From an uncultured Pseudomonadota bacterium (lineage in GTDB: Bacteria > Myxococcota_A > Polyangia > Fen-1088), in assembly GCA_963847705.1 (NCBI GenBank), contig CAWKBC010000032.1:128001-192000 (forward strand): 64,000 nt of DNA, read 5' to 3'. Both the position numbers and the translations under genes were made by a program. Of the stretch, positions 49,214 to 60,909 are shown in pieces; position 1 is the first letter of the stretch; each line of letters starts with the position of its first letter. Under the pieces are notes generated by a model. It was given only the letters and a program-made list of their open reading frames with translations. It had not been told where the DNA came from and did not search any database.

Positions 49214-49507
49214 ATGTCCACGACAGCGCTGAAACACAACAGCTACTTCGAGGGGAACGTGCAGAGCGTCGGCTTCGAGCGCAACGGGCGGCGCGCGACG
49301 GTCGGCGTGATCGCCCCCGGCAGCTATCACTTCGGGACCGAGGCCCCCGAGCGGATGACGGTCATCAGCGGCGAGCTGGCGGTCAAGCCCGACGGCGGCA
49401 CCGAGTGGACGCCCTACCCGGCCGGCACCGCCTTCGAGATCGCGGGCGGCGCCGGGTTCGACGTGCGCGCCAAAACGCCGACCGCCTACCTGTGTGAATA
49501 CCTCTAG
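49214..49507 (+). CDS. ppnP: Pyrimidine/purine nucleoside phosphorylase
   Basis: NSYFEGNVQSVGF, TVGVIAPGSYHFGTEAPERMTVISG, AYLCEY. Confidence 0.92.
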   Translation: MSTTALKHNSYFEGNVQSVGFERNGRRATVGVIAPGSYHFGTEAPERMTVISGELAVKPDGGTEWTPYPAGTAFEIAGGAGFDVRAKTPTAYLCEYL

Positions 49508-49890
49508 ATCGCCACGGCGGTCTGGAACAGGTCGTCGAGGGCGGCGGCGGGATCCTCGCAGAGGCCGGCGTGAGGCGAGGTCGGCTGCACGATCGTACTG
49601 CGGGGCGCCGACAGCCAGTGAAACCGCTCCGAGGGCGGCAGGCGCGCGATCGGGCCGGCGGTGACCTCGCCGGCGGCGACGGCGCGGACGGCCTCGAGCT
49701 GGCTCGCCAGCGCCGCGACGTCGACCTCCGGCGCCAGCGCGCGCAGCCGCCGCTCGTCGAGCGCGATCCGGCAACCGAGGTACGCGGTGGTCGGACAGAA
49801 CAGGATCACGCCGACGTTGAGCCGCTCGTCGCGATCGACGCGCGGCACGACCTGCACGATCACATAGTCAAACGCGCGACGCTCGGACAC
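49504..49890 (-). CDS. DUF3037 family protein
   Basis: FDYVIVQVVPRVDRDERLNVGVILFC, ERFHWLSAPRSTIVQ. Confidence 0.9.
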   Translation of the reverse strand: MSERRAFDYVIVQVVPRVDRDERLNVGVILFCPTTAYLGCRIALDERRLRALAPEVDVAALASQLEAVRAVAAGEVTAGPIARLPPSERFHWLSAPRSTIVQPTSPHAGLCEDPAAALDDLFQTAVAI

Positions 49891-50740
49891 GGTTCGCCTC
49901 GTCGAGGAGCTTCGGCAACGCCGCGCGCCGGGCGCGCAACCAGGTTCGGTACGCCGGCCGCAGCTTGTCGCTGCCCGGGCCCTCCAGCCAAAGATCGGGG
50001 ACGGCCTCGACGGCGCGCGCGATCTGCTGGTCGTCGAGGGCCGCCGCCAGTGCGACGCCCGCCGCGGGCAGCTGATCGGCGAACGGCAACAGCACGTGCT
50101 CGCCGACGCGCCCGAACGGCCGCGCCGCCGTGGTGACCAGCTCGTTCTCGTCATTCGCACCCTGGCCGTCCCAGCCGTGGTGCCAGTAGAGGGCGGCGCC
50201 GTGATCGATGAGCCACAGCTCGCCCCCCTGCCAGAGCAGGTTCGGGTTGCGCGCGGTGCGGTCGACGTTGACCGCGAAGAGGTCCAGGGCAACGATCCGT
50301 GAGGCCAGCGCACCGTCGATCGGCCGCCCCGCCGCCACGTCGTAGCCGACGGCCCCGGCCAGATACCCCATCGCCAGGTTGAGGCCCGCGCTGGCGATCA
50401 ACAGCTCCTGGATCTCCATGTGCGGCTCGCTGCGGCCGAGCGCGGCGTCGATCTCGATGAGCGCCAGCTCCGGAAGGCGCAGCCCCGCCGCCCGCGCCAG
50501 CTCGCCGACGATCAGCTCCGCCGCCAGCGCGCGTCCCCCCTGCGCGGCGGCCCGGAACTTGGCGACGTAGAGCGCGCCGTCGTCGGCCTCGACCACCGCC
50601 GGGACCGAGCCCCCCTCGCGCAGCGCGGTCACGTAGCGCGTGGCGAGGAGCCGCCGCAGCGGACGCGGCGGCGCTGGGAGCGAGTTGCGATCATGGTCGG
50701 GCGCGGCGGTCGACACGTCCGGCGATTCTGCCCGAGGCAC
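49868..50740 (-). CDS. HipA-like kinase
   Basis: RYVTALREGGSVP, YVAKFR, NVDRTARNPNLL, LIDHGAAL; start uncertain. Confidence 0.88.
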   Translation of the reverse strand: MPRAESPDVSTAAPDHDRNSLPAPPRPLRRLLATRYVTALREGGSVPAVVEADDGALYVAKFRAAAQGGRALAAELIVGELARAAGLRLPELALIEIDAALGRSEPHMEIQELLIASAGLNLAMGYLAGAVGYDVAAGRPIDGALASRIVALDLFAVNVDRTARNPNLLWQGGELWLIDHGAALYWHHGWDGQGANDENELVTTAARPFGRVGEHVLLPFADQLPAAGVALAAALDDQQIARAVEAVPDLWLEGPGSDKLRPAYRTWLRARRAALPKLLDEANRVRASRV

Positions 50741-50790: not shown

Positions 50791-51849
50791 ATGTTTTCGA
50801 TGGAGCGGCTGCGAACCAACCTGCTCGTCAAGCTCGGCGAGGTGACCGATCGTACGCACGCCCTCCCCCTGGTCCTGTTTGGCGTCACCGCCCGCTGCAA
50901 TTCTCACTGCCTCTCCTGCGACTTCTGGCAGGCCGACGGCGCCGGCGATCTCGCGCGCGAGGAGATCGAACGCCTGGCGGTCGAGCTCCACGATCTCGGG
51001 ACGCGGGTGGTGGTCTTCACCGGCGGCGAACCGTTGTTTCGGCCCGACGTCATGCAGATCGCCGACCTGTTTCGCGCCCGCGGAATCAACCTTCATCTCC
51101 TGACCAGCGGCCTCGCGCTCGAGCGGTTCGCGCGCGAGGTGGCCGAGAGATTCGTGGACGTGACGGTGTCGCTGGACGGCCACTCCCGGGAGCTCTACCG
51201 CCAGGTCCGTGGCGTCGACGGGCTGCCGGCGCTGACCCGGGGCGTGAAGGCCTTTCGTGCGCTGGCTCCGGGCGTCCCGTTTCGCGCGCGCAGCACCCTG
51301 CATCGGCACAACTTCCGGTTCTTGGCGCAGATCATCGACCAGGCGCTGGAGATGGGGATCCCGCAGGTCTCGTTCCTGGCCGCCGACGTGGGCCCCGATT
51401 CGTTCAATCGCGGCGTCCAGCGACTGCCGACGGTCGAGAGCTCACCGGCGCGCGACCTCCTGCTCGACGCGGGTGAGGTCGAGGAGTTCGATCGGGTCGT
51501 CGCCTCGGTCATCCGCTCTCACGCGCGTGAGCTGGCCGACGGCCGGGCCACGCCCGGGCCCGCGGGGCTGCGGCGTCTGGTGCGTTACTACGCCGCTCAC
51601 CTGGGCCTGGGCCCGTTCGCCTCCGTCGCCTGCAACGCGCCCTGGATGAGCGTCTACATCGGCGCGGACGGGGCGGTGCGCCCCTGCTTCTTCCACGGCC
51701 CGGTGGGGAACATCCGGCAGCGGTCGCTCCGGGAGATCATGACCGACGCCATGCCGGCCTTCCGTCGCACCCTGACCGTCGCCGACGACGCCACCTGCCA
51801 GCGCTGCGTCTGCAACATCAAGACGGGGCTGCGCTCCCGCCTCTGGTGA
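50791..51849 (+). CDS. Radical SAM protein with SPASM/Twitch domain
   Basis: CNSHCLSC, TGGEP, SLDG, CNAPW...VRPCFF...CQRCVC. Confidence 0.92.
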   Translation: MFSMERLRTNLLVKLGEVTDRTHALPLVLFGVTARCNSHCLSCDFWQADGAGDLAREEIERLAVELHDLGTRVVVFTGGEPLFRPDVMQIADLFRARGINLHLLTSGLALERFAREVAERFVDVTVSLDGHSRELYRQVRGVDGLPALTRGVKAFRALAPGVPFRARSTLHRHNFRFLAQIIDQALEMGIPQVSFLAADVGPDSFNRGVQRLPTVESSPARDLLLDAGEVEEFDRVVASVIRSHARELADGRATPGPAGLRRLVRYYAAHLGLGPFASVACNAPWMSVYIGADGAVRPCFFHGPVGNIRQRSLREIMTDAMPAFRRTLTVADDATCQRCVCNIKTGLRSRLW

Positions 51850-51858
51850 GCGAGCAAT

Positions 51859-52554
51859 TCAGCGCGCCGAAGCCGGAAGCGACGCGGCGAAGACGGTCAG
51901 CACCTCGCCCGAGATGACCGTCCGCGACCGGAGCGGCGTGACTTCAAAGCCCGCGGCCGCGAACGACTGATCGAGTCGGTCGACAGCGATGTCGGAGTCC
52001 GAAACCAGCACCCGGCCCCCCGGCCGGAGGTACTGGGCGGCCTCGGCGACGAAGCGCGCGCGCACCCGGTTGACGTCGCGCCAGGAGTGCTCCCAGAGGT
52101 CCTTGGCCTCGCCGGCGAAGTAGGGCGGATTGAAGATGATCACGTCGAACCGCTCGCCGGTCACGGACGCGAAGAGATCGCCCTGGCGCGCCTCCACCTT
52201 GTCCTCGAGGTGATTGAGGAGCGCGTTGATCCTGAGCGCGCGCGCCGCCTCCGGGTTGATGTCCGTACCGACGGTGCGCTGGGCGCGCCGCGCCGCCAGC
52301 AACGCCAGAAAACCGCTGCCGGTCCCCACCTCCAACACCGACTTCCCCTCGAGCGGCTCGCGCCCGACGACCTCGGCCAGCAGCTTGGACGAAAAGAACA
52401 GCCCGGGATGAAACACGTCGGGCAGGACGACCAGCGAGACGCCCCCGAGCTGCTCGAGCACCAGCCGCCGGTGGCGCTGCCGCTGCAGGAGGAGAAAGTG
52501 CGCGCGGAGCGCCGCCCGTCCCAGCCGCCGCTGAAGGCGCGCCCTGAAAGTCAC
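51859..52554 (-). CDS. HemK2/PrmC-like SAM-dependent methyltransferase
   Basis: VLEVGTGSG, DINP, GDLF, FNPPY. Confidence 0.88.
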   Translation of the reverse strand: MTFRARLQRRLGRAALRAHFLLLQRQRHRRLVLEQLGGVSLVVLPDVFHPGLFFSSKLLAEVVGREPLEGKSVLEVGTGSGFLALLAARRAQRTVGTDINPEAARALRINALLNHLEDKVEARQGDLFASVTGERFDVIIFNPPYFAGEAKDLWEHSWRDVNRVRARFVAEAAQYLRPGGRVLVSDSDIAVDRLDQSFAAAGFEVTPLRSRTVISGEVLTVFAASLPASAR

Positions 52555-52687
52555 GCGAGGGACCTTAGCTCCGCCGGGGGTTGGCGTCCATCAGGCCGGC
52601 TCGGCACGGCGTCAAGTGACGACCGACCGAGGACAGATGGGGAACCCGGAAGTGGTCTGCCCGGATGCTTGGTGCTTAGATGGGTCG

Positions 52688-53530
52688 ATGTCGAGCTCGC
52701 CGCCCTCGGCGCACCAGGAACGCGCGACCAAGGCTCCCGCGCTCACGGTGCTGGTCAACTCGACGGACAGTTACGAGGATTGTTGGCGGCCATTTTTCAC
52801 GCTGTTCTCGAAGTTCTGGCCCCGCTGTCCTTATCCGATCCTGCTCAACACCGAAAAAAAGGACTTCGCCTGGCCGGGGCTCGAGGTTCGGGCGTCGCGT
52901 GTCGCTCTTGCCGACGGGCAGGCTTCCCCCGCCTGGGGCGACTGCCTGTTGCGTTGCCTCGAGCTGGTCGGCAGCGAGGTGATCCTCTATCTGCAGGAGG
53001 ACTACTTTGTCTCGGCGCCGATTGACGTCGCGCAGATCGTGAGCCTCGCGCGCCGGATGATCGACGAAGAGCATAGCCACATCAGCCTGACGCCGTTCTC
53101 GATGGAGAGGCCGTGGCGCCCGCTCCCCGGAGATCCGTTGCTCTGCGCCGTCGATCAGAGAGCCGCGTTTCGAATCAACCTGCAGGCGGGGCTCTGGCGT
53201 ACGCAGGTGCTTCGACGCCACCTCCGTCGTCACGAGAACCCCTGGCAATTCGAGGTCTGGGGTACGCAGCGATCCCACCGCATCCGGGAGAGCTTTCTGT
53301 GCGTGAACCCCGACGCGCTCAACGGCGGCGCTGCGGCGCTCGTTCCCTACTTCCCGACCGGCGTCGTGGAAGGACGGTGGCAAGAGGAGGCGGTCATCCC
53401 GCTCTTCGGGCAGCATGGGATCGAAACCGACTTCAGCCGTCGAGGATTCCACGACCGAACGGCGCCGAGACCGAAACCCCGGGGTTGGATCGGGCGCCGG
53501 GCTTGGGCGCGCCTTCGATCGCTCATTTGA
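52688..53530 (+). CDS. Putative GT-A fold glycosyltransferase-like protein
   Basis: STDSYEDCWRPFFTLFSKFWP, YLQEDYF, LQAGLW, ENPWQFE; start uncertain. Confidence 0.6.
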   Translation: MSSSPPSAHQERATKAPALTVLVNSTDSYEDCWRPFFTLFSKFWPRCPYPILLNTEKKDFAWPGLEVRASRVALADGQASPAWGDCLLRCLELVGSEVILYLQEDYFVSAPIDVAQIVSLARRMIDEEHSHISLTPFSMERPWRPLPGDPLLCAVDQRAAFRINLQAGLWRTQVLRRHLRRHENPWQFEVWGTQRSHRIRESFLCVNPDALNGGAAALVPYFPTGVVEGRWQEEAVIPLFGQHGIETDFSRRGFHDRTAPRPKPRGWIGRRAWARLRSLI

Positions 53531-54695
53531 GCCAGTTCAGCGCGCGAGCAGCGGCCACGCTCTGGGCGTAGATCTCCAGCGCCCGACGGGCCAGCACCGG
53601 CCAGCTGAGCGTCGCTTCGAAGTGCGCGCGCACGATGGCGCGACGGGCGGCGCGGTCGCTCGCCGCGACGCCGAGGCGAATCAAGGCCGCTGCCAGCGCG
53701 CCGGCATCGCCGACGGGAAACAGCGCGCCGACGCGGCCGCCGTCCGTCAGCGCGCGGAACGAAGGAATGTCGGTGACGACCGGGGTGACGCCGAAGGAGA
53801 GCGCCTCCACCAGGGCGAAGCAGAGGCTCTCGCTGTGGCTGCCGAGCAGAAACAGATCCGCGCCGGCGTAGAACGCGGGCAGCTCGGCATGCGCGATCCG
53901 TCCCGCCAGGTGGACGCGCGATGACAGCAGCGGCGAAGCCGCGATCCGGCGCGTCACCTCGGGCAAAAGCTCGCTCTCGCCGAACACCAGCGTCAGCGCC
54001 GCGTCCGGCAGCGCCGGGAGCGCGCGCTCGAGACCGTCGAGAATCGTCAGCGGATCCTTGTTCGGGTTGAGACGACCGACCCAGAGGAGCGCCGGCGCGC
54101 CGGGGATCCGCGCCGGCGCGCCCGCGGCGGGAGGCGTCTCCGGCAGCGTCGAGCCGCTTTCCATGAGCTCGTAGATCGGCTGCTGGCGGCCGATGACGCC
54201 CGTCTCGATCCAGCGCGCGGCCTGCGCGCGGACGGAGAACAGGAACCCGTCCCCGGCGCGCAGCCCAAGACGGTTGAAGGTGCGCCATCTCCACTTGCGA
54301 AATCCGGGCGCCTCGTAGGCGCCACCGTGGTCCTGCGCCAGCACGGCGGTCGTCCGCGACAGCCTCGACCGCAGCTGGCGAACCGGCAGCGGGAGCAGCC
54401 CATGCAGATGGACGACGTTCGGCGCCAAGGCGACGACACGCTCGACGATCCGGGGCGCCCACAGTCGATCGACCTGCGCCTCCGGCGCCCCTTCGGCGAC
54501 GAAGTGGTAAGCGACGCCCCCCTGCCGCACCACCGCGTCCCGCGAGAACCGCTGCACGACCGAAACGTCGACGGAGCGCCCGCCCGCCGCCGCGACGGCC
54601 TGGGCCCAGCCCGTCAGGACCGGATAACGGTCCAAGAGCACCTCCGGCCGGTCCACGTCGGCGGCGTACGGATAGTTGACGAAGGTGACCCGCAT
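53523..54695 (-). CDS. Glycosyltransferase family 4
   Basis: WVGRLNPNKDP, ADLFLLGSHSESLCFALVEA, VVTDIP. Confidence 0.9.
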   Translation of the reverse strand: MRVTFVNYPYAADVDRPEVLLDRYPVLTGWAQAVAAAGGRSVDVSVVQRFSRDAVVRQGGVAYHFVAEGAPEAQVDRLWAPRIVERVVALAPNVVHLHGLLPLPVRQLRSRLSRTTAVLAQDHGGAYEAPGFRKWRWRTFNRLGLRAGDGFLFSVRAQAARWIETGVIGRQQPIYELMESGSTLPETPPAAGAPARIPGAPALLWVGRLNPNKDPLTILDGLERALPALPDAALTLVFGESELLPEVTRRIAASPLLSSRVHLAGRIAHAELPAFYAGADLFLLGSHSESLCFALVEALSFGVTPVVTDIPSFRALTDGGRVGALFPVGDAGALAAALIRLGVAASDRAARRAIVRAHFEATLSWPVLARRALEIYAQSVAAARALNWLK

Positions 54696-54714
54696 TCAGG
54701 CCGGGGACCTCGAT

Positions 54715-56268
54715 TTACAGACTCTCGTTCTGAGGCTCGCGCAACCGGATGAGACGGCGCGCGACGCGCAGCTCCCAGGGGTTGTCGTAGCGGCGGGTGG
54801 CGTAGCGCCAGCGCGCCAGATTGCTGAGGATCATCCGCGACGCGCCGGAGATGCGGGCGTCCTGCACGGTCGGGAAGCGGCAGGCGATCACCCGCGCGAA
54901 GTCGTTCACCCGCTGGCGGATGCGGGGGGTCAGCCAGGGGGCGTCGTGGTGGCAGACCCAGCGCACCCACTGGGGCTCGGTCCACTCCTCGGGCGTGGTG
55001 GGGAGCGCCGGGCCGGAGGGACCGTAGCTCTGCAGAACCGGCAGCCGCGGCGTCGCACCCCCCTTGGGAAGCGCCGAGTTCCGGCGCTGCGGCGTGGGGC
55101 TGTAAAAGTAGAGGACGATCTCCGATTCGGGGTTCAGCGTCTTGAGCCGGCGCACGAACTCGAACGTCTCTTCGATCTCCCCTTCCGGATCGTCCGGCCC
55201 GCCGAGCACGAACGAGAACTCCGGGATGACGCCATACTCGCGGCAGCGGCGGGCGACCTCGATGGTGTGCTCGACGCGGGACCCTTTGCGCATCCGCTTG
55301 AGCGCCTCGTCGCTGGCCGCCTCGGCGCCGACGTAGGCCATGCGCAGGCGGCTCTTGCGGATCTTCTCCCAGGTCGCGGCGCCGAAGCCGGCCAGCGCGT
55401 CGGTGCGCGCGTAGCACCACCAGGGCATCTGGAGCTGCCCCAGCACGTCGAGGATCGGGACCGAGGTCTCCTCGCGATCGAAGAAGTTGTGGTCGAAGAA
55501 CTGCACCCCGTCGGCGCCCCAGCGCTCGCGCTGGGTCCCGAGCGCGTGCAGCAGGCGCTCGGGCGCCTCCAGCAGGGTCTTGCCGTTCCACATCGAGACG
55601 ACACCGCAGAACTCGCACTTGAACCGGCAGCCGAGCGCCGCCTGGTGAACCGTCGTGCGCGCGCTCAGGAAGCTCGGGCGCATGTACTCGCTGATGCCCG
55701 GGATCCGATCGTAGGGGATGACCGGCAGCGCGCCCGGAGGGAGTGCGGGGCGATCGGGATTGTGAAACGTCCGGTGGTCCTGCTTCCAGGTGAGGCCGGC
55801 GATCTGGCCGATCTCGGAGAGATCGCGGGCAGAGCTTCCGTCGGCCGGCGGACCGGCGTCGGGCAGGCGGCAGAGAAGGTCGACCAGGGTCTCTTCCCCC
55901 TGACCGCGCACGAGGTAGTCGACGTAGGGGGCGTTGATCGCCGCGTCTGGATAGAGGGTCGGGAAGTACCCGCCCCAGACGATGGGGACCTCGGGGAACG
56001 CGGCCCGGATCGCCGCCGACATCTCGATGGCCGGGATCACCTGCGGCCCCGGCATCACGGTGAGCCCCACCAGCGCGTGCGGGCGGTCGCCGAGCAGCCG
56101 GAGCGTGGTCGCCGTCGGATCGGCGAGGCGGTTTCCGTCGACGATGCTCCAGGGCCAACGCCCCTCGAGCACGGCGGTGAGATGGACGATTGACAGCGGC
56201 ATGCGCGCGTTGCTCGCCACCCCCGTGCGCGGGTTGACCAGCAAGACGGCGCCCGGCGCCACGCTCAC
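54715..56268 (-). CDS. Cobalamin-binding radical SAM enzyme
   Basis: B12-binding domain (PLSIVHL, VWGGYFPT, VRGQGE), GCRFKCEFC, FFDHNFF, GAEAAS. Confidence 0.93.
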   Translation of the reverse strand: MSVAPGAVLLVNPRTGVASNARMPLSIVHLTAVLEGRWPWSIVDGNRLADPTATTLRLLGDRPHALVGLTVMPGPQVIPAIEMSAAIRAAFPEVPIVWGGYFPTLYPDAAINAPYVDYLVRGQGEETLVDLLCRLPDAGPPADGSSARDLSEIGQIAGLTWKQDHRTFHNPDRPALPPGALPVIPYDRIPGISEYMRPSFLSARTTVHQAALGCRFKCEFCGVVSMWNGKTLLEAPERLLHALGTQRERWGADGVQFFDHNFFDREETSVPILDVLGQLQMPWWCYARTDALAGFGAATWEKIRKSRLRMAYVGAEAASDEALKRMRKGSRVEHTIEVARRCREYGVIPEFSFVLGGPDDPEGEIEETFEFVRRLKTLNPESEIVLYFYSPTPQRRNSALPKGGATPRLPVLQSYGPSGPALPTTPEEWTEPQWVRWVCHHDAPWLTPRIRQRVNDFARVIACRFPTVQDARISGASRMILSNLARWRYATRRYDNPWELRVARRLIRLREPQNESL

Positions 56269-57236
56269 GCCCCCTCGACGCGGTAGGGATTCCGGCCGGC
56301 CAGCACGATCGACAACGTCTTGAGGCTGGACCAACACATCTCGAGGTTCCGCGTTCCGGCCTGGTAGAGGGCGTTTCCCAGCAGGGACCAGAGCAGCCAG
56401 CTCCGGCGCACGCCGGCGAGCTCGCTCCGCATGGCGATGAACCGATCGAGGGCCAGGACCCGCTTCGAATAGCCGATCGTCGCCCGGGGCCGCTCGGTCT
56501 CGGCCTTGTGGTGGTGAACGAAGGCCTCGGTCACCACGTGGATCCCCTCCGCCGGAAATCCGATGGCCACCCCGAAGTTGTCGCCGTAACCGTGGCGGTC
56601 GAGCCCCTCGTCGAACGGCGACCCGACGAGCCACTCCTTGCGCACCAGCGCCGCGCCCAGCGAGTAGACCGGCGTCTTGAAGAAAGGCCCGCTGAAATCG
56701 GTGAGCACGGGCCAGCCGGCGCTGGAGATGTGATTCCCGCGCCGGCGATAGTGCTGCGCCAGCAGCTCGCCGAGCGCGCCAGGGCACTGGATCTCGCCCC
56801 AGAGCCCCAGACGAAACAGCCGCACCCAGCAGAGCCAGGTCAGCGAGGTGACGGGGAACTGGCCCACCCACTTGCCGCCCACCTTCTCCAGGAACAGCCC
56901 CGAGACGGCGCCGGCTTCGGGGCGGGCGGCCAGATGTGCGGTCAGCTTCTGGAGATAGTCAGCGGGGACCTCGACGTCGTCGTCGCAGAGGAAGATCCAG
57001 CGCCCGCGCGCCTCCTGGATCCCCCGATTGCGCTGCACACAGACCGACTTGGGCGATTCGAAGCAGCGCACCCGCTCGCCGAACGGCGCCAGGTCGGTGG
57101 GCGAGAGCGGGCGATCGCTCGAATCGATCACCAGGATCTCCAGCGGACGGTGGGTCGAGCGTTCGAGATCCCCCAGCAACGAAAGCACCCGCTCCCGTCG
57201 GTTGCAGGTGGGGATGACGACACTGATCTCGCTCAT
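56265..57236 (-). CDS. Glycosyltransferase family 2
   Basis: ISVVIPTCNRR, QRNRGI, FLCDDDV. Confidence 0.9.
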   Translation of the reverse strand: MSEISVVIPTCNRRERVLSLLGDLERSTHRPLEILVIDSSDRPLSPTDLAPFGERVRCFESPKSVCVQRNRGIQEARGRWIFLCDDDVEVPADYLQKLTAHLAARPEAGAVSGLFLEKVGGKWVGQFPVTSLTWLCWVRLFRLGLWGEIQCPGALGELLAQHYRRRGNHISSAGWPVLTDFSGPFFKTPVYSLGAALVRKEWLVGSPFDEGLDRHGYGDNFGVAIGFPAEGIHVVTEAFVHHHKAETERPRATIGYSKRVLALDRFIAMRSELAGVRRSWLLWSLLGNALYQAGTRNLEMCWSSLKTLSIVLAGRNPYRVEGA

Positions 57237-57365
57237 GGACCTCGGGCGATTCTACTTCAAGGCTCACCGCCCGGACGCCGGGCCGAGGCCAACATCCCCG
57301 TTCGGAGGGTGAGCCCCGGCGTAGGATGCCCCTCGGATGACCGTCTCGCAGACTGGCGCGCCCTC

Positions 57366-58481
57366 ATGAGTCGCAAGCGGCTGGCGATCTTCGCCCCCGG
57401 CGGGATCGGCGTGGGGGTCTTTTCGCAAGGGTTGCCCGCCCTCGGCTCGCTGGTCGCTTCGTTGGCGGAGCGATTCGAGGTGACGTTCTACTCGCTGGCG
57501 CCGGTCAATCCCGGGTTCGCGCCGGAGGGCTTCCGTCTCCGCGCCCCGTCCGCCACCGTCGACGTCAAGGGTGCCCGTTGGCTCGATCTGGCGCGACGAT
57601 TCCTGGCCGATCACCTGACCGCCCGCTACGACCGGACGCTGTCGCTCTGGGGTTATCCCATCGGCGCATTCGTGGTGGGGCTCTCGGGGGCGCTGCGCCT
57701 GCCGGCGGCGGTGATGCTCTTGGGGGCCGAGACCGCCGATGTCCCCAGCATCGGCTACGGACACCTCGGCCAACCGCTCAGCCGCAGGCTGGTCATCGAG
57801 ACCTGCCGGCGCGCCGACGCGCTGGTGGCGGTGGCGCAATCGCAGCTGGACGCGCTCGCCAGGTGTGGGTTCGCGCGGCCCGACGATCAGGTGATCCCGA
57901 TCGGCGCCGAAGCCGCGCTGTTCCCCTTCGCAGCCAAGCCGCGCACGAAGCCGCTCAAGATCCTCCACGTGGGGAACCTGACCGGCGTCAAGGACCAGGC
58001 GACGCTGCTGCGGGCGTTCGCGCGGCTTCCGGCGGCGCTGGACGCGCGGCTGCGGATCGTCGGCGACGGATCGCTGCGTGGCCAGCTGGTCGCCCTGATC
58101 CGCGAGCTCGGGCTCGAGGGCGCCGTCGAGCTGACCGGCGCGGTTCCGTTCGGGGAGATGCCGGATCACTACCGCTGGGCCGATATGTTCGTGCTGACGT
58201 CGCTCTCCGAAGGGCAGAACCGCTCGCTGACCGAGGCGGCGATGTGCGGCGTGTTGCAGGTGAGCACCCCGGTGGGACACATCGCCGATCTCGGCGAGAC
58301 CGTGGCCGTGGTGGTACGGACCGGCGATCCCCAGCACGTCGCCGACCGCATCGTCGGGATCGCCGGTGACGCCGACGGTTGGAGCCGCCGCGTGCGTGCG
58401 GCGCGCGGCTGGGCGGCCACACACGACATGGCCTGGACCGTCGATCGGTTGAGCGCGCTCCTCGAGGGTCTGCGCGCGTGA
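57366..58481 (+). CDS. Glycosyltransferase family 4
   Basis: HVGNLTGVKDQATLL, ADMFVLTSLSEGQ...EAAMCG, STPVG. Confidence 0.9.
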   Translation: MSRKRLAIFAPGGIGVGVFSQGLPALGSLVASLAERFEVTFYSLAPVNPGFAPEGFRLRAPSATVDVKGARWLDLARRFLADHLTARYDRTLSLWGYPIGAFVVGLSGALRLPAAVMLLGAETADVPSIGYGHLGQPLSRRLVIETCRRADALVAVAQSQLDALARCGFARPDDQVIPIGAEAALFPFAAKPRTKPLKILHVGNLTGVKDQATLLRAFARLPAALDARLRIVGDGSLRGQLVALIRELGLEGAVELTGAVPFGEMPDHYRWADMFVLTSLSEGQNRSLTEAAMCGVLQVSTPVGHIADLGETVAVVVRTGDPQHVADRIVGIAGDADGWSRRVRAARGWAATHDMAWTVDRLSALLEGLRA

Positions 58482-58530
58482 GCAGCGAGATCTCCCTCCG
58501 CCAGGCTTGCGGTCCCCGCGCGGCGCCGAC

Positions 58531-59629
58531 GATGATGTCCCTCTCCCGGAAGCGCCGCATGCCTCTCTCTCTTCTCGCCCTCGGGCTCGTGCTGCTGGCC
58601 GTCGTCCTGGCCGCATGCGCGGGGCGATCGCCCGGCGGGCAATCGCCCGCGGTCCGCTCGCCTGCCGCGCCGGCCTCGCCGCCGGCGGTGACGATCAGGA
58701 AGGGTTCGTTCCATGGCTGGGACGCCCTCTTGCTGCGCAACCGCGCCGCGGAGGTGACCGTCGTCCCCGCCATCGGTCGGGTCATGCAGCTCGCGCTGCG
58801 CAGCGGTGACGGGGCCGCCACGCAGGGGCCCTTCTGGAGCCATCCCGGAATCGGTCCGGGCCTGGGCGGCGACGAGAACGGCTGGATCAACCTGGGCGGC
58901 GACAAGGCCTGGCCGGCGCCGCAGTCGCGCTGGGAGGCGATCGTCGGCAAGGGGTGGCCGCCGCCCGAGACGTTCGACGCTTCGCCGTTCGAGGCCAGGA
59001 TCGTCAGCAGCTCGAGGGTCGGAGGTGGCGCGGGCGACGCGGTGGAGCTCCTCTCCACCGTCGATCCGGCGTACGGCGTGCGGGTGCGACGAACGATCGC
59101 GCTCGATCCGGCCGCGCCGATCGTGACGATCGAGACCTGCTACGAAAAGATGGCCGGGGAGCCGATCCGCGTCGGCGTCTGGACCATCACGCAGCTGGCC
59201 TCGCCCGAGCGCCTGTTCATGCGGCTCCCGGCGCACTCGGCCTTCCCGGGCGGCTATGCGCTGCGGCTCCCCGATCGGCCGAAGGACCTGCGGGTTGCGG
59301 GGCGCCTCCTGTCGCTGGCGCGCGAGCCCGCCGCCAAGACCATGCTGGGGAGCGACGGCGACGCGCTGCTCTGGGTCGGCAGCGCTGCGCATCTCCTGAT
59401 CGAAGCGGTGACCGGCCCGCATGATCCACCGGGCGAATGGCCGGACGGGATGCAGGCGCAGATTTACACCAGCTCGGACCAGGCGCTCCCCTACGTCGAG
59501 CTGGAGCTCCTCTCGCCGCTCCGCGACCTGCGGATCGGCGAGCGCGCCTCTCTGCGCGTGCGCTACACGCTGGAGGCCCGCTCCAGCGCCGACCCGACCG
59601 CCGAGGCGAAGCGGGTGTTGGGCCTTTGA
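58531..59629 (+). CDS. DUF4380/aldose-epimerase-like lipoprotein
   Basis: Lipobox LAAC, VVPAIGRVMQ, WINLGGDKAWPAPQ, YVELELLSP; start uncertain (GTG 58478 also possible). Confidence 0.65.
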
Positions 59630-60909
59630 ACCGGCCCGGTTGGCGGGCGCTCGGAGCCGCCCTGGCCGCGCGCCGCTGGCTGCTCCTCCTGCTGGCCGTG
59701 GCGGCGGCGCCGTTCCTGCCGGGCGCCCTGCAGTTTCTGCGACACGGCGTCCCCGACGTGATGTTCACCGGCGACGGCGCCGTCCTGGAGCTCCGGACCC
59801 TCTTCGCCGCGCAGGGCCGCGAGCTGCTCGGCCCCTACTCGCGCTTCCAGTGGAGCCATCCCGGCCCCGCCTTCTTCTATCTCGCCGTCCCGCTCTATCA
59901 GCTGTTTCATCAGCGGGGCCCCGCGCTGAGCCTGTTCGTGCTGATCGCCAACTTCGCGACGGCCACAGCCTTGGTGGTGACCGCCCGCCGGCTGCGCGGC
60001 GATCTCTTTGCGCTGGCCGTGGCGGTGCTGCTGGCGGTCTACGAGACAATTGCGGCGCCCTTCCCCCTTTCCTGGGAATGGAACCCGATGACGCCCATCT
60101 TGCCGCTGGCCCTGCTGGTGTTCCTCTGCGTCCGTCTCGGCACTGGCGCCCTCGGGGTGCTTCCAGCGGTGGCCTTCGTGGCCTCGGCGATCGTCCAGAC
60201 GCACCTCGGGTTCACGCCGGCGGCGCTCTACCTGGTGGCCACCGGTACGCTGTTCTGCTTCCGCGAGCTGTTCGTCGTCGGATCCCCAACGACGATCGAT
60301 AGACGTCGCTCGGCGCTGTCGCTCGGGGCCGCCATCCTCGTCGCGACCCTGCTCGTCGCCACCTGCGCGGTGCATGAGATCCGCGGCGAGATCTTCGCTC
60401 ACCTCACCGCCTGGATCTCGGTGCTGGGGTTCATCGCCTGGGCCGCCGTCGCCGCGGCGCTGCTCCCGGCGGCCGTCGGCGGTCGGCCCCTCAACCGGGT
60501 CGCGCTGGCGGTCGCCCTACCGGTGCTGGCGCTGGCGCTGGCCGCCGGAGGCGACAAACCGATGATCCGAGGTCGCGACGTTCCGACGGAGAAGCTGACC
60601 GCCGACGCGGAGACGTTCCTGCGCCGCGCCCGGATCGATCGCTTGCGGCTGGAGATCGCCGCGCACGACGAGTGGCCGCGCGCGGCCGCAATCATCGTGA
60701 CGCTCGTCAAACATGGTTTCGGCGTCACGGTCACCGACGACTGGCTGTTCATGTTCGGCACCCAGCTGGCGTCGGGAGCGGGAGAGCTGCCGGCACTGGT
60801 CATCGCCGACGCACCCGCCGCCTCGCGGCTGCGCCTCCAGGCGGGCTTTGAGCCGGTCGCCATCGCCGACGGGACCTCCCTCTTTCTTCGCGGTGGGACC
60901 AGGCCATGA
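59626..60909 (+). CDS. Polytopic membrane protein, GT-C-like glycosyltransferase candidate
   Basis: GDGAVLEL...LGPYSRFQWSHPGPAFFY, WNP, many TM helices; TTG start overlaps the upstream stop. Confidence 0.6.
   Translation: MNRPGWRALGAALAARRWLLLLLAVAAAPFLPGALQFLRHGVPDVMFTGDGAVLELRTLFAAQGRELLGPYSRFQWSHPGPAFFYLAVPLYQLFHQRGPALSLFVLIANFATATALVVTARRLRGDLFALAVAVLLAVYETIAAPFPLSWEWNPMTPILPLALLVFLCVRLGTGALGVLPAVAFVASAIVQTHLGFTPAALYLVATGTLFCFRELFVVGSPTTIDRRRSALSLGAAILVATLLVATCAVHEIRGEIFAHLTAWISVLGFIAWAAVAAALLPAAVGGRPLNRVALAVALPVLALALAAGGDKPMIRGRDVPTEKLTADAETFLRRARIDRLRLEIAAHDEWPRAAAIIVTLVKHGFGVTVTDDWLFMFGTQLASGAGELPALVIADAPAASRLRLQAGFEPVAIADGTSLFLRGGTRP

Follow-up and report, generated by a model that had tools for sequence, protein, structure and literature searches.

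We analyzed a window of 64,000 nucleotides from an uncultured myxobacterium (G000:C32:128001-192000, where G stands for a genome, C for a contig and, below, L for a fetched locus; the genome G000 is 85% complete), and in it nine genes at positions 50791..60909 that encode two radical S-adenosylmethionine (SAM) enzymes, a methyltransferase and several glycosyltransferases (GTs). An earlier, sequence-only reading had taken them for an orphan, self-contained cluster without assembly machinery that would make an undescribed, radical-modified and methylated glycan decoration. All nine genes do exist, yet they form no single operon and are no orphan: seven of them are the accessory half of a larger locus, the assembly half of which lies on contig C30 of the same genome. 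The core idea fared better, since the genes co-occur across phyla, and the set is real, conserved and uncharacterized. The earlier observation is thus confirmed in part, and its interpretation supported in part. On balance, we favor the reading that the two halves together would build a methyl-decorated oligosaccharide on a polyprenyl-pyrophosphate carrier, to be handed to a surface acceptor other than lipid A. A literature search for this cassette, with most subscription papers and all supplements outside its reach, found no description of it.

The gene set and its partner half

All nine open reading frames (ORFs) are in place, in this order:

50791..51849, + strand: twitch-type radical SAM enzyme, 352 aa (Pfam, conserved cysteines, fold match to BlsE)
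51859..52554, - strand: HemK-family SAM methyltransferase with an FNPPY motif (Pfam, profile search)
52688..53530, + strand: soluble GT2/GT-A-like protein, ORF open from 52616 (Atlas feature search)
53523..54695, - strand: GT4a, a cassette-specific GT4 subfamily (Pfam)
54715..56268, - strand: cobalamin-dependent radical SAM enzyme, here called B12A, 517 aa (Pfam, motifs, fold)
56265..57236, - strand: GT2, translationally coupled to B12A (Pfam, 4-nt overlap)
57366..58481, + strand: GT4b, a cassette-specific GT4 subfamily (Pfam)
58532..59629, + strand: predicted lipoprotein, probably outside the cassette (no family matches)
59626..60909, + strand: multi-pass membrane protein, weakly GT-C-like, probably outside the cassette (weak PMT_2 matches among relatives)

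Pfam bears out the main labels of the sequence-only reading: Radical_SAM and SPASM (50791-51849), a class I methyltransferase with FNPPY (51859-52554), two GT4s, B12-binding and Radical_SAM (54715-56268) and GT2 (56265-57236). The GT-A-like protein, the lipoprotein and the membrane protein have no Pfam match even at E<=1, and neither radical SAM protein reaches any NCBIfam cut-off. The strand order, + - + - - - + + +, rules out a single operon; the nine genes form at least five transcription blocks, with gaps of 9-133 nt between genes.

The partner half, located by searching the genome with the neighbor families, occupies G000:C30:253907-266084 (L059, L060):

C30:254-256 kb: second B12 radical SAM enzyme, c2 (74% to L009), and methyltransferase c1
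C30, after c2 and c1: Wzy_C protein with an Ig-like insert, priming transferase, GT4, Wzy_C protein with a TPR-like tail, GT4-nucleotidyltransferase-like fusion, Wzx

The priming transferase passes TIGR03025 (299.7 versus 295.6 bits), and Wzx and the Wzy_C proteins pass their Pfam cut-offs. The GT4 fusion has no Pfam match in its second part, which we take to be nucleotidyltransferase-like from a GG...DxD motif. The genetic linkage of a priming transferase, a flippase and a ligase/polymerase marks the C30 half as a Wzx/Wzy_C lipid-linked glycan locus. The absence of Wzx and Wzy noted earlier is therefore true of the window but not of the genome, which carries Wzx, the priming transferase and Wzy_C at C30:254-266 kb. 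Orthologues of the C30 genes adjoin B12A in L008, L009, L010, L012, L031 and G005. In G030 and G033, from two other genera of the family, the two halves form one contiguous locus.

The distribution of the genes among relatives is uneven. Of 61 related genomes, 23 have c2. B12A was found in 16, of which 15 also carry c2, and the twitch gene in 10, each of them a c2 carrier. Since c2 is more widespread than B12A and the twitch gene, we regard the C30 set as the core and the window set as a variable add-on. Scanning the contigs of GTDB yielded 42 loci, of which 35 are close to B12A, at 45-93% identity. B12A recurs in six phyla, the close loci coming from Myxococcota, Acidobacteriota, Armatimonadota, Planctomycetota, Entotheonella and Pseudomonadota. 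Of the genome-derived loci, 24 span at least 17 kb; eight of these belong to the Roseateles group and are not independent. The 24 contain c1 (20), c2 (18), the twitch gene (15), GT4a (15), GT4b (14) and Wzx (11). In the reciprocal test, starting from the twitch family, 23 of 80 metagenome loci were at least 8 kb long, and these hold B12A in 19 cases, c2 in 17, a glycosyltransferase or assembly gene in 21 and a membrane step in 15. The clustering of the twitch gene with B12A is not chance. Among 251 evenly drawn Acidobacteriota genomes, 20 carry B12A, 10 the twitch gene (all within the 20), 12 GT4a and 12 GT4b.

The assembly genes raise the question of the acceptor. LpxC exceeds its cut-off in none of the 37 genomes of the myxobacterial family (f1), where a single 27-residue sub-threshold fragment was seen in G013. 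Outside the family, 12 of 24 genomes from the class have the gene, and in G000 neither LpxB nor WaaA turned up. Judged from these gene searches, the family appears to lack lipid A, and the acceptor is therefore probably not lipid A. The Wzy_C proteins would here probably not ligate to lipid A but to a protein or a non-lipopolysaccharide (non-LPS) lipid, or else release a free polymer. Wza is not in the locus; Poly_export matches in G000 lie only at C23:63 kb and C30:105 kb, from where they may be used in trans. The ligase candidates have Wzy_C and none of the PglL-specific Pfam domains, which we presume a PglL would show. A related myxobacterium reportedly lacks LPS and has unusual outer-membrane lipids, going by the title of a 2011 paper by Keck et al. 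that PMC11324152 cites.

The radical SAM enzymes and the methyltransferase slot

B12A matches PF02310 with 40.9 bits (cut-off 32.1). It has the cobalamin motifs G68/T70/M72 (G-x-T/S-x-M), G99-G100 (GG) and G124-E125 (GE), plus a TokK-like D-x-N, motifs that are described in the accessible part of PMC9204698, and its core CX3CX2C cysteines (C214, C218, C221) are invariant in 33 sequences. The predicted structure (pLDDT 88.6) matches the folds of TsrM, OxsB, AprD4 and MgmA (TM 0.54-0.64). Motifs and modeled fold support cobalamin use, not methylation as such; AprD4 binds no cobalamin, according to the part of PMC12931638 that was available. The GT2 stop codon overlaps the GTG start of B12A by 4 nt, in agreement with the translational coupling that had been proposed. 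CobS was not found in G000, so cobalamin would be salvaged.

Against the curated models B12A remains far from every cut-off (in bits, score/cut-off: HpnJ 78/578, HpnR 20/650, BchE 72/481, PhpK 42/600, Sden_1168 46/575), and the ladderane models likewise score far below theirs for the window radical SAM proteins. No curated family covers B12A. Assignments to hopanoid, heme d1, pyrroloquinoline quinone (PQQ), mycofactocin or phosphinate pathways were rejected, all being below cut-off, as was a branched tetraether (brGDGT-type) lipid reading, with no tetraether synthase Tes over cut-off in G000. The HpnJ/HpnR/HpnP and PqqE/NirJ/MftC enzymes share the domain architectures of the window proteins, but their partners are absent here, and the check set by the sequence-only reading, that both radical SAM enzymes fall outside the HpnJ, PqqE and NirJ families, came out in its favor. 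The genome's own hopanoid C-3 methylase, HpnR (847 versus 650 bits), is encoded elsewhere, at G000:C34:118997-120511 (L061:10997-12511), with a GT4 and a methyltransferase-like gene two genes away.

The twitch enzyme has the motif CX3CX2C (C36/40/43), and C281, C299, C336, C339 and C341 are invariant across its family. A PF13186 match at 281-339 places it with enzymes of the BlsE/BtrN type, which have a short C-terminal domain with one auxiliary cluster. Its model (pLDDT 90.7) has a single N-terminal helix ahead of the barrel and, as in BlsE and BtrN, no RiPP recognition element (RRE). BlsE is the nearest solved fold (Z 27.7, root-mean-square deviation 2.8, 297 residues aligned; runner-up 23.3) and the top match by sequence as well, at about 20% identity. 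The BlsE equivalog TIGR04466 is nevertheless far off (56.7 bits, cut-off 400), and the two enzymes differ in their C-terminal cysteines (CXCX2C in BlsE, CX2CXC in the window enzyme) and in context, there being no cytosylglucuronate synthase near the window gene. The substrate of BlsE is cytosylglucuronic acid, a uronic acid glycoside, as the available part of PMC3715490 states. Models for PqqE (49/381 bits), NirJ (60/515 bits), MftC and SPASM maturases of peptides that are synthesized ribosomally and modified post-translationally (RiPPs) all stayed below cut-off. An epimerase reading of the HygY/NeoN type was rejected: the twitch family has no invariant barrel cysteine. When 7999 candidate homologues were scored, 4753 proteins came out at E<=1e-30, a number that may include other SPASM families. 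In all Roseateles-group loci (e.g., L023:5645-7233) the twitch gene is preceded by two conserved genes without known family, an ECF sigma factor, an anti-sigma factor and a subtilase.

The window methyltransferase has the motifs GTGSG and FNPPY, with G77, G79, G81, N142 and P144 invariant, which identify it as a HemK-family enzyme. On TIGR00537 (cut-off 87 bits) it scores 84.8 and its L013 homologue 89.5. In a profile search the family's top PDB match is GenN (77.9 bits), and AprI is matched too. Both are HemK-family sugar N-methyltransferases, as far as the available text of PMC9338882 goes, and GenN acts immediately ahead of the B12 C-methylase GenD1 according to the accessible part of PMC4340712.

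The place of this gene beside B12A is filled by two alternative families. Among 82 B12A loci, 29 have only a HemK-like methyltransferase, 33 only a BioC-like one, 20 neither and none both; where at least 4 kb is available on both flanks (n=51), the respective counts are 17, 28, 6 and 0. The labels come from family hidden Markov models (HMMs) with clearly bimodal scores, built from the same loci, which include the near-copies L009 and L076. In 40 of the 62 labeled loci the methyltransferase lies within 400 nt of B12A. On a B12A tree of 55 rows (a quick IQ-TREE result; of the 62 labeled loci six with short or weak B12A matches and one duplicate were dropped) the label needs seven changes, of which at least five are forced by well-supported branches; the swap has therefore happened repeatedly. 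PDB matches of the BioC-like family include both N- and O-methyltransferases. Of the B12A loci, 23 with the BioC-like type also carry an amidohydrolase gene, and none with the HemK type does. A strict link between the two was rejected, with amidohydrolase genes also found beside GT4a in the absence of a BioC-like methyltransferase (L198, L199, L204, L209). We infer one methylation step tied to the B12A substrate, achieved either by direct N-methylation (HemK type) or by hydrolysis followed by methylation (BioC-like type). PIG-L de-N-acetylase genes occur in two HemK-type loci (L066:1208-2647 and L008:17126-18187), one of them directly downstream of B12A; none was found in G000.

Other genes of the window and neighboring loci

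The remaining labels of the sequence-only reading fared less well. The GT-A-like protein owes its name to the Atlas feature search, which is its sole support and linked it (0.98) to clusters with the automatic names GT family 2 or hypothetical; Pfam did not back this. Its gene is the only gap in an 88-89% identical alignment with G001, where a GT87 gene sits, and its GC content at third codon positions is 0.80 compared to 0.89-0.93 in the neighbors. From this comparison we read the gene as a recent replacement of a GT87 gene. Close homologues of the GT2 were seen only in loci of near relatives.

The lipoprotein had been called DUF4380-like, which did not hold: the PF14315 HMM does not match it at E<=1 (C32:186.5 kb). 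The GT-C-like label of the membrane protein survives through its relatives only, 7 of 39 of which match PMT_2, weakly (E 0.0015-0.05). Its family has 132 matches, mostly of 500-700 aa and without a precomputed Pfam domain, and a PDB profile search with the family gave nothing useful. Compared to relative P0134, the window protein has an in-frame deletion of about 105 codons that removes, among others, the conserved W242. Both genes had been counted as cluster members, but among 153 loci compared they recur only in G001, the nearest relative, and are probably bystanders.

Directly upstream of the twitch gene, and divergent from it, a HipA-like kinase (PF20613) and a DUF3037 gene lie at 49504-50740, the same neighbor being present in G001. 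Three other loci (L196, L197 and L200, from G072, G106 and G090) have GT4a and GT4b flanking a 143-aa gene beside two sulfatases, with no radical SAM genes nearby and c2-like genes elsewhere. Finally, a separate cassette of PqqD, a SPASM radical SAM enzyme and a kinase-like protein lies at G000:C32:268634-272142 (L062:6634-10142), beside very large ORFs; we take it to resemble a peptide-maturation system.

Proposed pathway, alternatives and implications

That the gene set tailors a surface glycoconjugate is probable, and its steps may be pictured as follows. The priming transferase and the C30 GT4s would start the chain, to which GT4a, GT4b and GT2 of the window would add further, strain-variable residues. 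The HemK-family enzyme would N-methylate an amino or amido sugar in the manner of GenN and AprI. B12A, using methylcobalamin and a 5'-deoxyadenosyl radical, would next add a C-methyl group to that sugar at an unactivated carbon, just as GenD1 follows GenN. For the twitch enzyme a radical reaction of the BlsE/BtrN type may be envisaged, in which a sugar, probably a uronic acid, is decarboxylated, dehydrated or oxidized. Wzx would flip the unit, and the Wzy_C proteins would transfer or polymerize it onto proteins or a non-LPS lipid. The edits could take place on the nucleotide-activated sugar or on the carrier-bound chain. The specific order, N- and then C-methylation, is drawn by analogy, and we put it forward tentatively, as a scheme that may well turn out to be wrong.

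In its assembly genes and its strain-variable content the set resembles the Wzx/Wzy_C undecaprenyl-pyrophosphate loci for O antigen, O-linked protein glycosylation and exopolysaccharide. Unlike these it has radical SAM tailoring enzymes and no Wza in the locus, and the lipid A pathway was not found in the family. The pairing of a HemK-family sugar N-methyltransferase with a B12 radical SAM C-methylase that acts next on the same sugar is known from GenN and GenD1 of gentamicin, and from AprI of apramycin (PMC4340712 and PMC9338882, in the parts available). By contrast, the window has no GenD2/GenS2-like dehydrogenase or aminotransferase, the similarity is distant, and the genes sit with Wzx, ligase and priming genes and not in an antibiotic cluster. 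In short, we picture the system as a Wzx/Wzy_C glycan pathway whose tailoring is of aminoglycoside style; it is a member of no tested equivalog and in this family fails the LPS test.

Several observations weigh against this reading. The B12A fold does not tell methylases from non-methylases, OxsB and AprD4 ranking level with TsrM, and the lead of GenN over protein HemK is a mere 4 bits (77.9 versus 73.7). An aminotransferase, a dehydrogenase and a de-N-acetylase that would provide a free amino sugar were not seen in either half in G000. The window copy also looks eroded: the GT87 is replaced, the membrane protein is internally deleted, and c18 and MTc22 were not found. Roseateles and Acidobacteriota carriers presumably make LPS, so that a non-LPS acceptor may not be general. 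In Acidobacteriota, where only 6-8 candidates were scored per genome, GT4a was found in only 5 of the 20 genomes with B12A and GT4b in only 6; genomes lacking B12A had them in 7 and 6 cases, respectively. Of 19 B12A loci fetched there, 9 have glycan genes nowhere within about 9 kb, a count for which 69 of 114 unassigned ORFs were scanned. In the five GT4a genomes tested that have no B12A, c2-like genes are present. We therefore regard the link to glycans as strong in Myxococcota, Roseateles and one branch of Acidobacteriota, and as looser in other groups.

One alternative ranks above the others, though we consider it unlikely: the radical enzymes would modify a lipid or small aglycone (e.g., ceramide, hopanoid or ether lipid), which GT4a, GT4b and GT2 glycosylate in the cytoplasm, the Wzx locus being merely a frequent neighbor. 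Cassettes without nearby glycosyltransferases do exist (L185, L186, L180, L181, L183), lipid-modifying B12 radical SAM enzymes are known from literature accessible in part, G000 makes hopanoids through HpnR, no lipid A genes were seen in the family, and the title cited above describes a related myxobacterium as lacking LPS and having unusual outer-membrane lipids. On the other hand, in G071 and G157, whose cassettes lack glycosyltransferases, GT4b adjoins the same Wzy_C protein away from the cassette; in many lineages the radical genes are interspersed with those for Wzx, ligase and priming transferase; and, as given above, the HpnJ, HpnR and ladderane models score far below cut-off and Tes does not exceed its own in G000. 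We consider it improbable that the product is a diffusible aminoglycoside- or nucleoside-like secondary metabolite. The nearest characterized enzymes (GenN, AprI, AprD4, BlsE) all come from aminoglycoside or peptidyl-nucleoside pathways, but the neighbor clusters show no recurring cyclitol synthase, aminotransferase, resistance gene or exporter, and the membrane genes that do recur (Wzx, Wzy_C, GT87/PMT_2, priming transferase) act on lipid-linked glycans.

Slightly less probable still is that the methyltransferase serves to assist B12A, with the cobalamin or the protein itself as its methylation target and the glycan edited by non-methylating radical chemistry. The methyltransferase does track B12A closely, with two unrelated families filling the slot; HemK enzymes methylate proteins, and the BioC-like family weakly matches the corrinoid-protein methyltransferase model CpaM (47 versus 180 bits). 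Against this stand the six fully flanked loci with neither type, the regeneration of methylcobalamin from SAM by GenD1 unaided (PMC4340712, in the part available), and the occurrence of the amidohydrolase in B12A loci with the BioC-like and never with the HemK type, which substrate chemistry fits better. That the enzymes tailor a RiPP is very improbable: SPASM/twitch and B12 enzymes are common in RiPP pathways, and in Roseateles and Armatimonadota the cassette is joined by genes for an HprK-like kinase and NTP_transf_5, but the twitch model has no RRE, the intergenic gaps leave no space for a precursor, BlsE outranks the peptide maturases in the fold match, and the PqqD/SPASM cassette of G000 is a separate locus.

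Our preferred reading remains a glycan pathway. This locus contributes the reconstruction of the split gene set, the exchange of methyltransferases and a host that appears to be free of lipid A. The swap predicts two chemotypes differing at one position, and since cultured Roseateles-group strains such as Roseateles saccharophilus BE314, Pelomonas sp. Root1217 and Paucibacter sp. DJ2R-2 carry the cassette, the proposal is testable now. B12A is found in 20 of 251 Acidobacteriota genomes and 16 of 61 relatives, yet stands outside every curated family. It is tempting to speculate, on a conjecture that we hold to be doubtful in its full extent, that a cross-phylum soil-bacterial system adds C-methyl branches and N-methyl groups to a surface glycan by antibiotic-type cobalamin radical chemistry, and that in the lipid-A-free myxobacterial family its product might be the main outer-surface glycoconjugate, on protein or sphingolipid, replacing LPS. 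If true, this would add to the known glycan-editing enzymes and point to the surface cover of myxobacteria without lipid A. Radical C-methylation would then be a routine edit of bacterial surface glycans, with a bearing on phage receptors and predation in soil.

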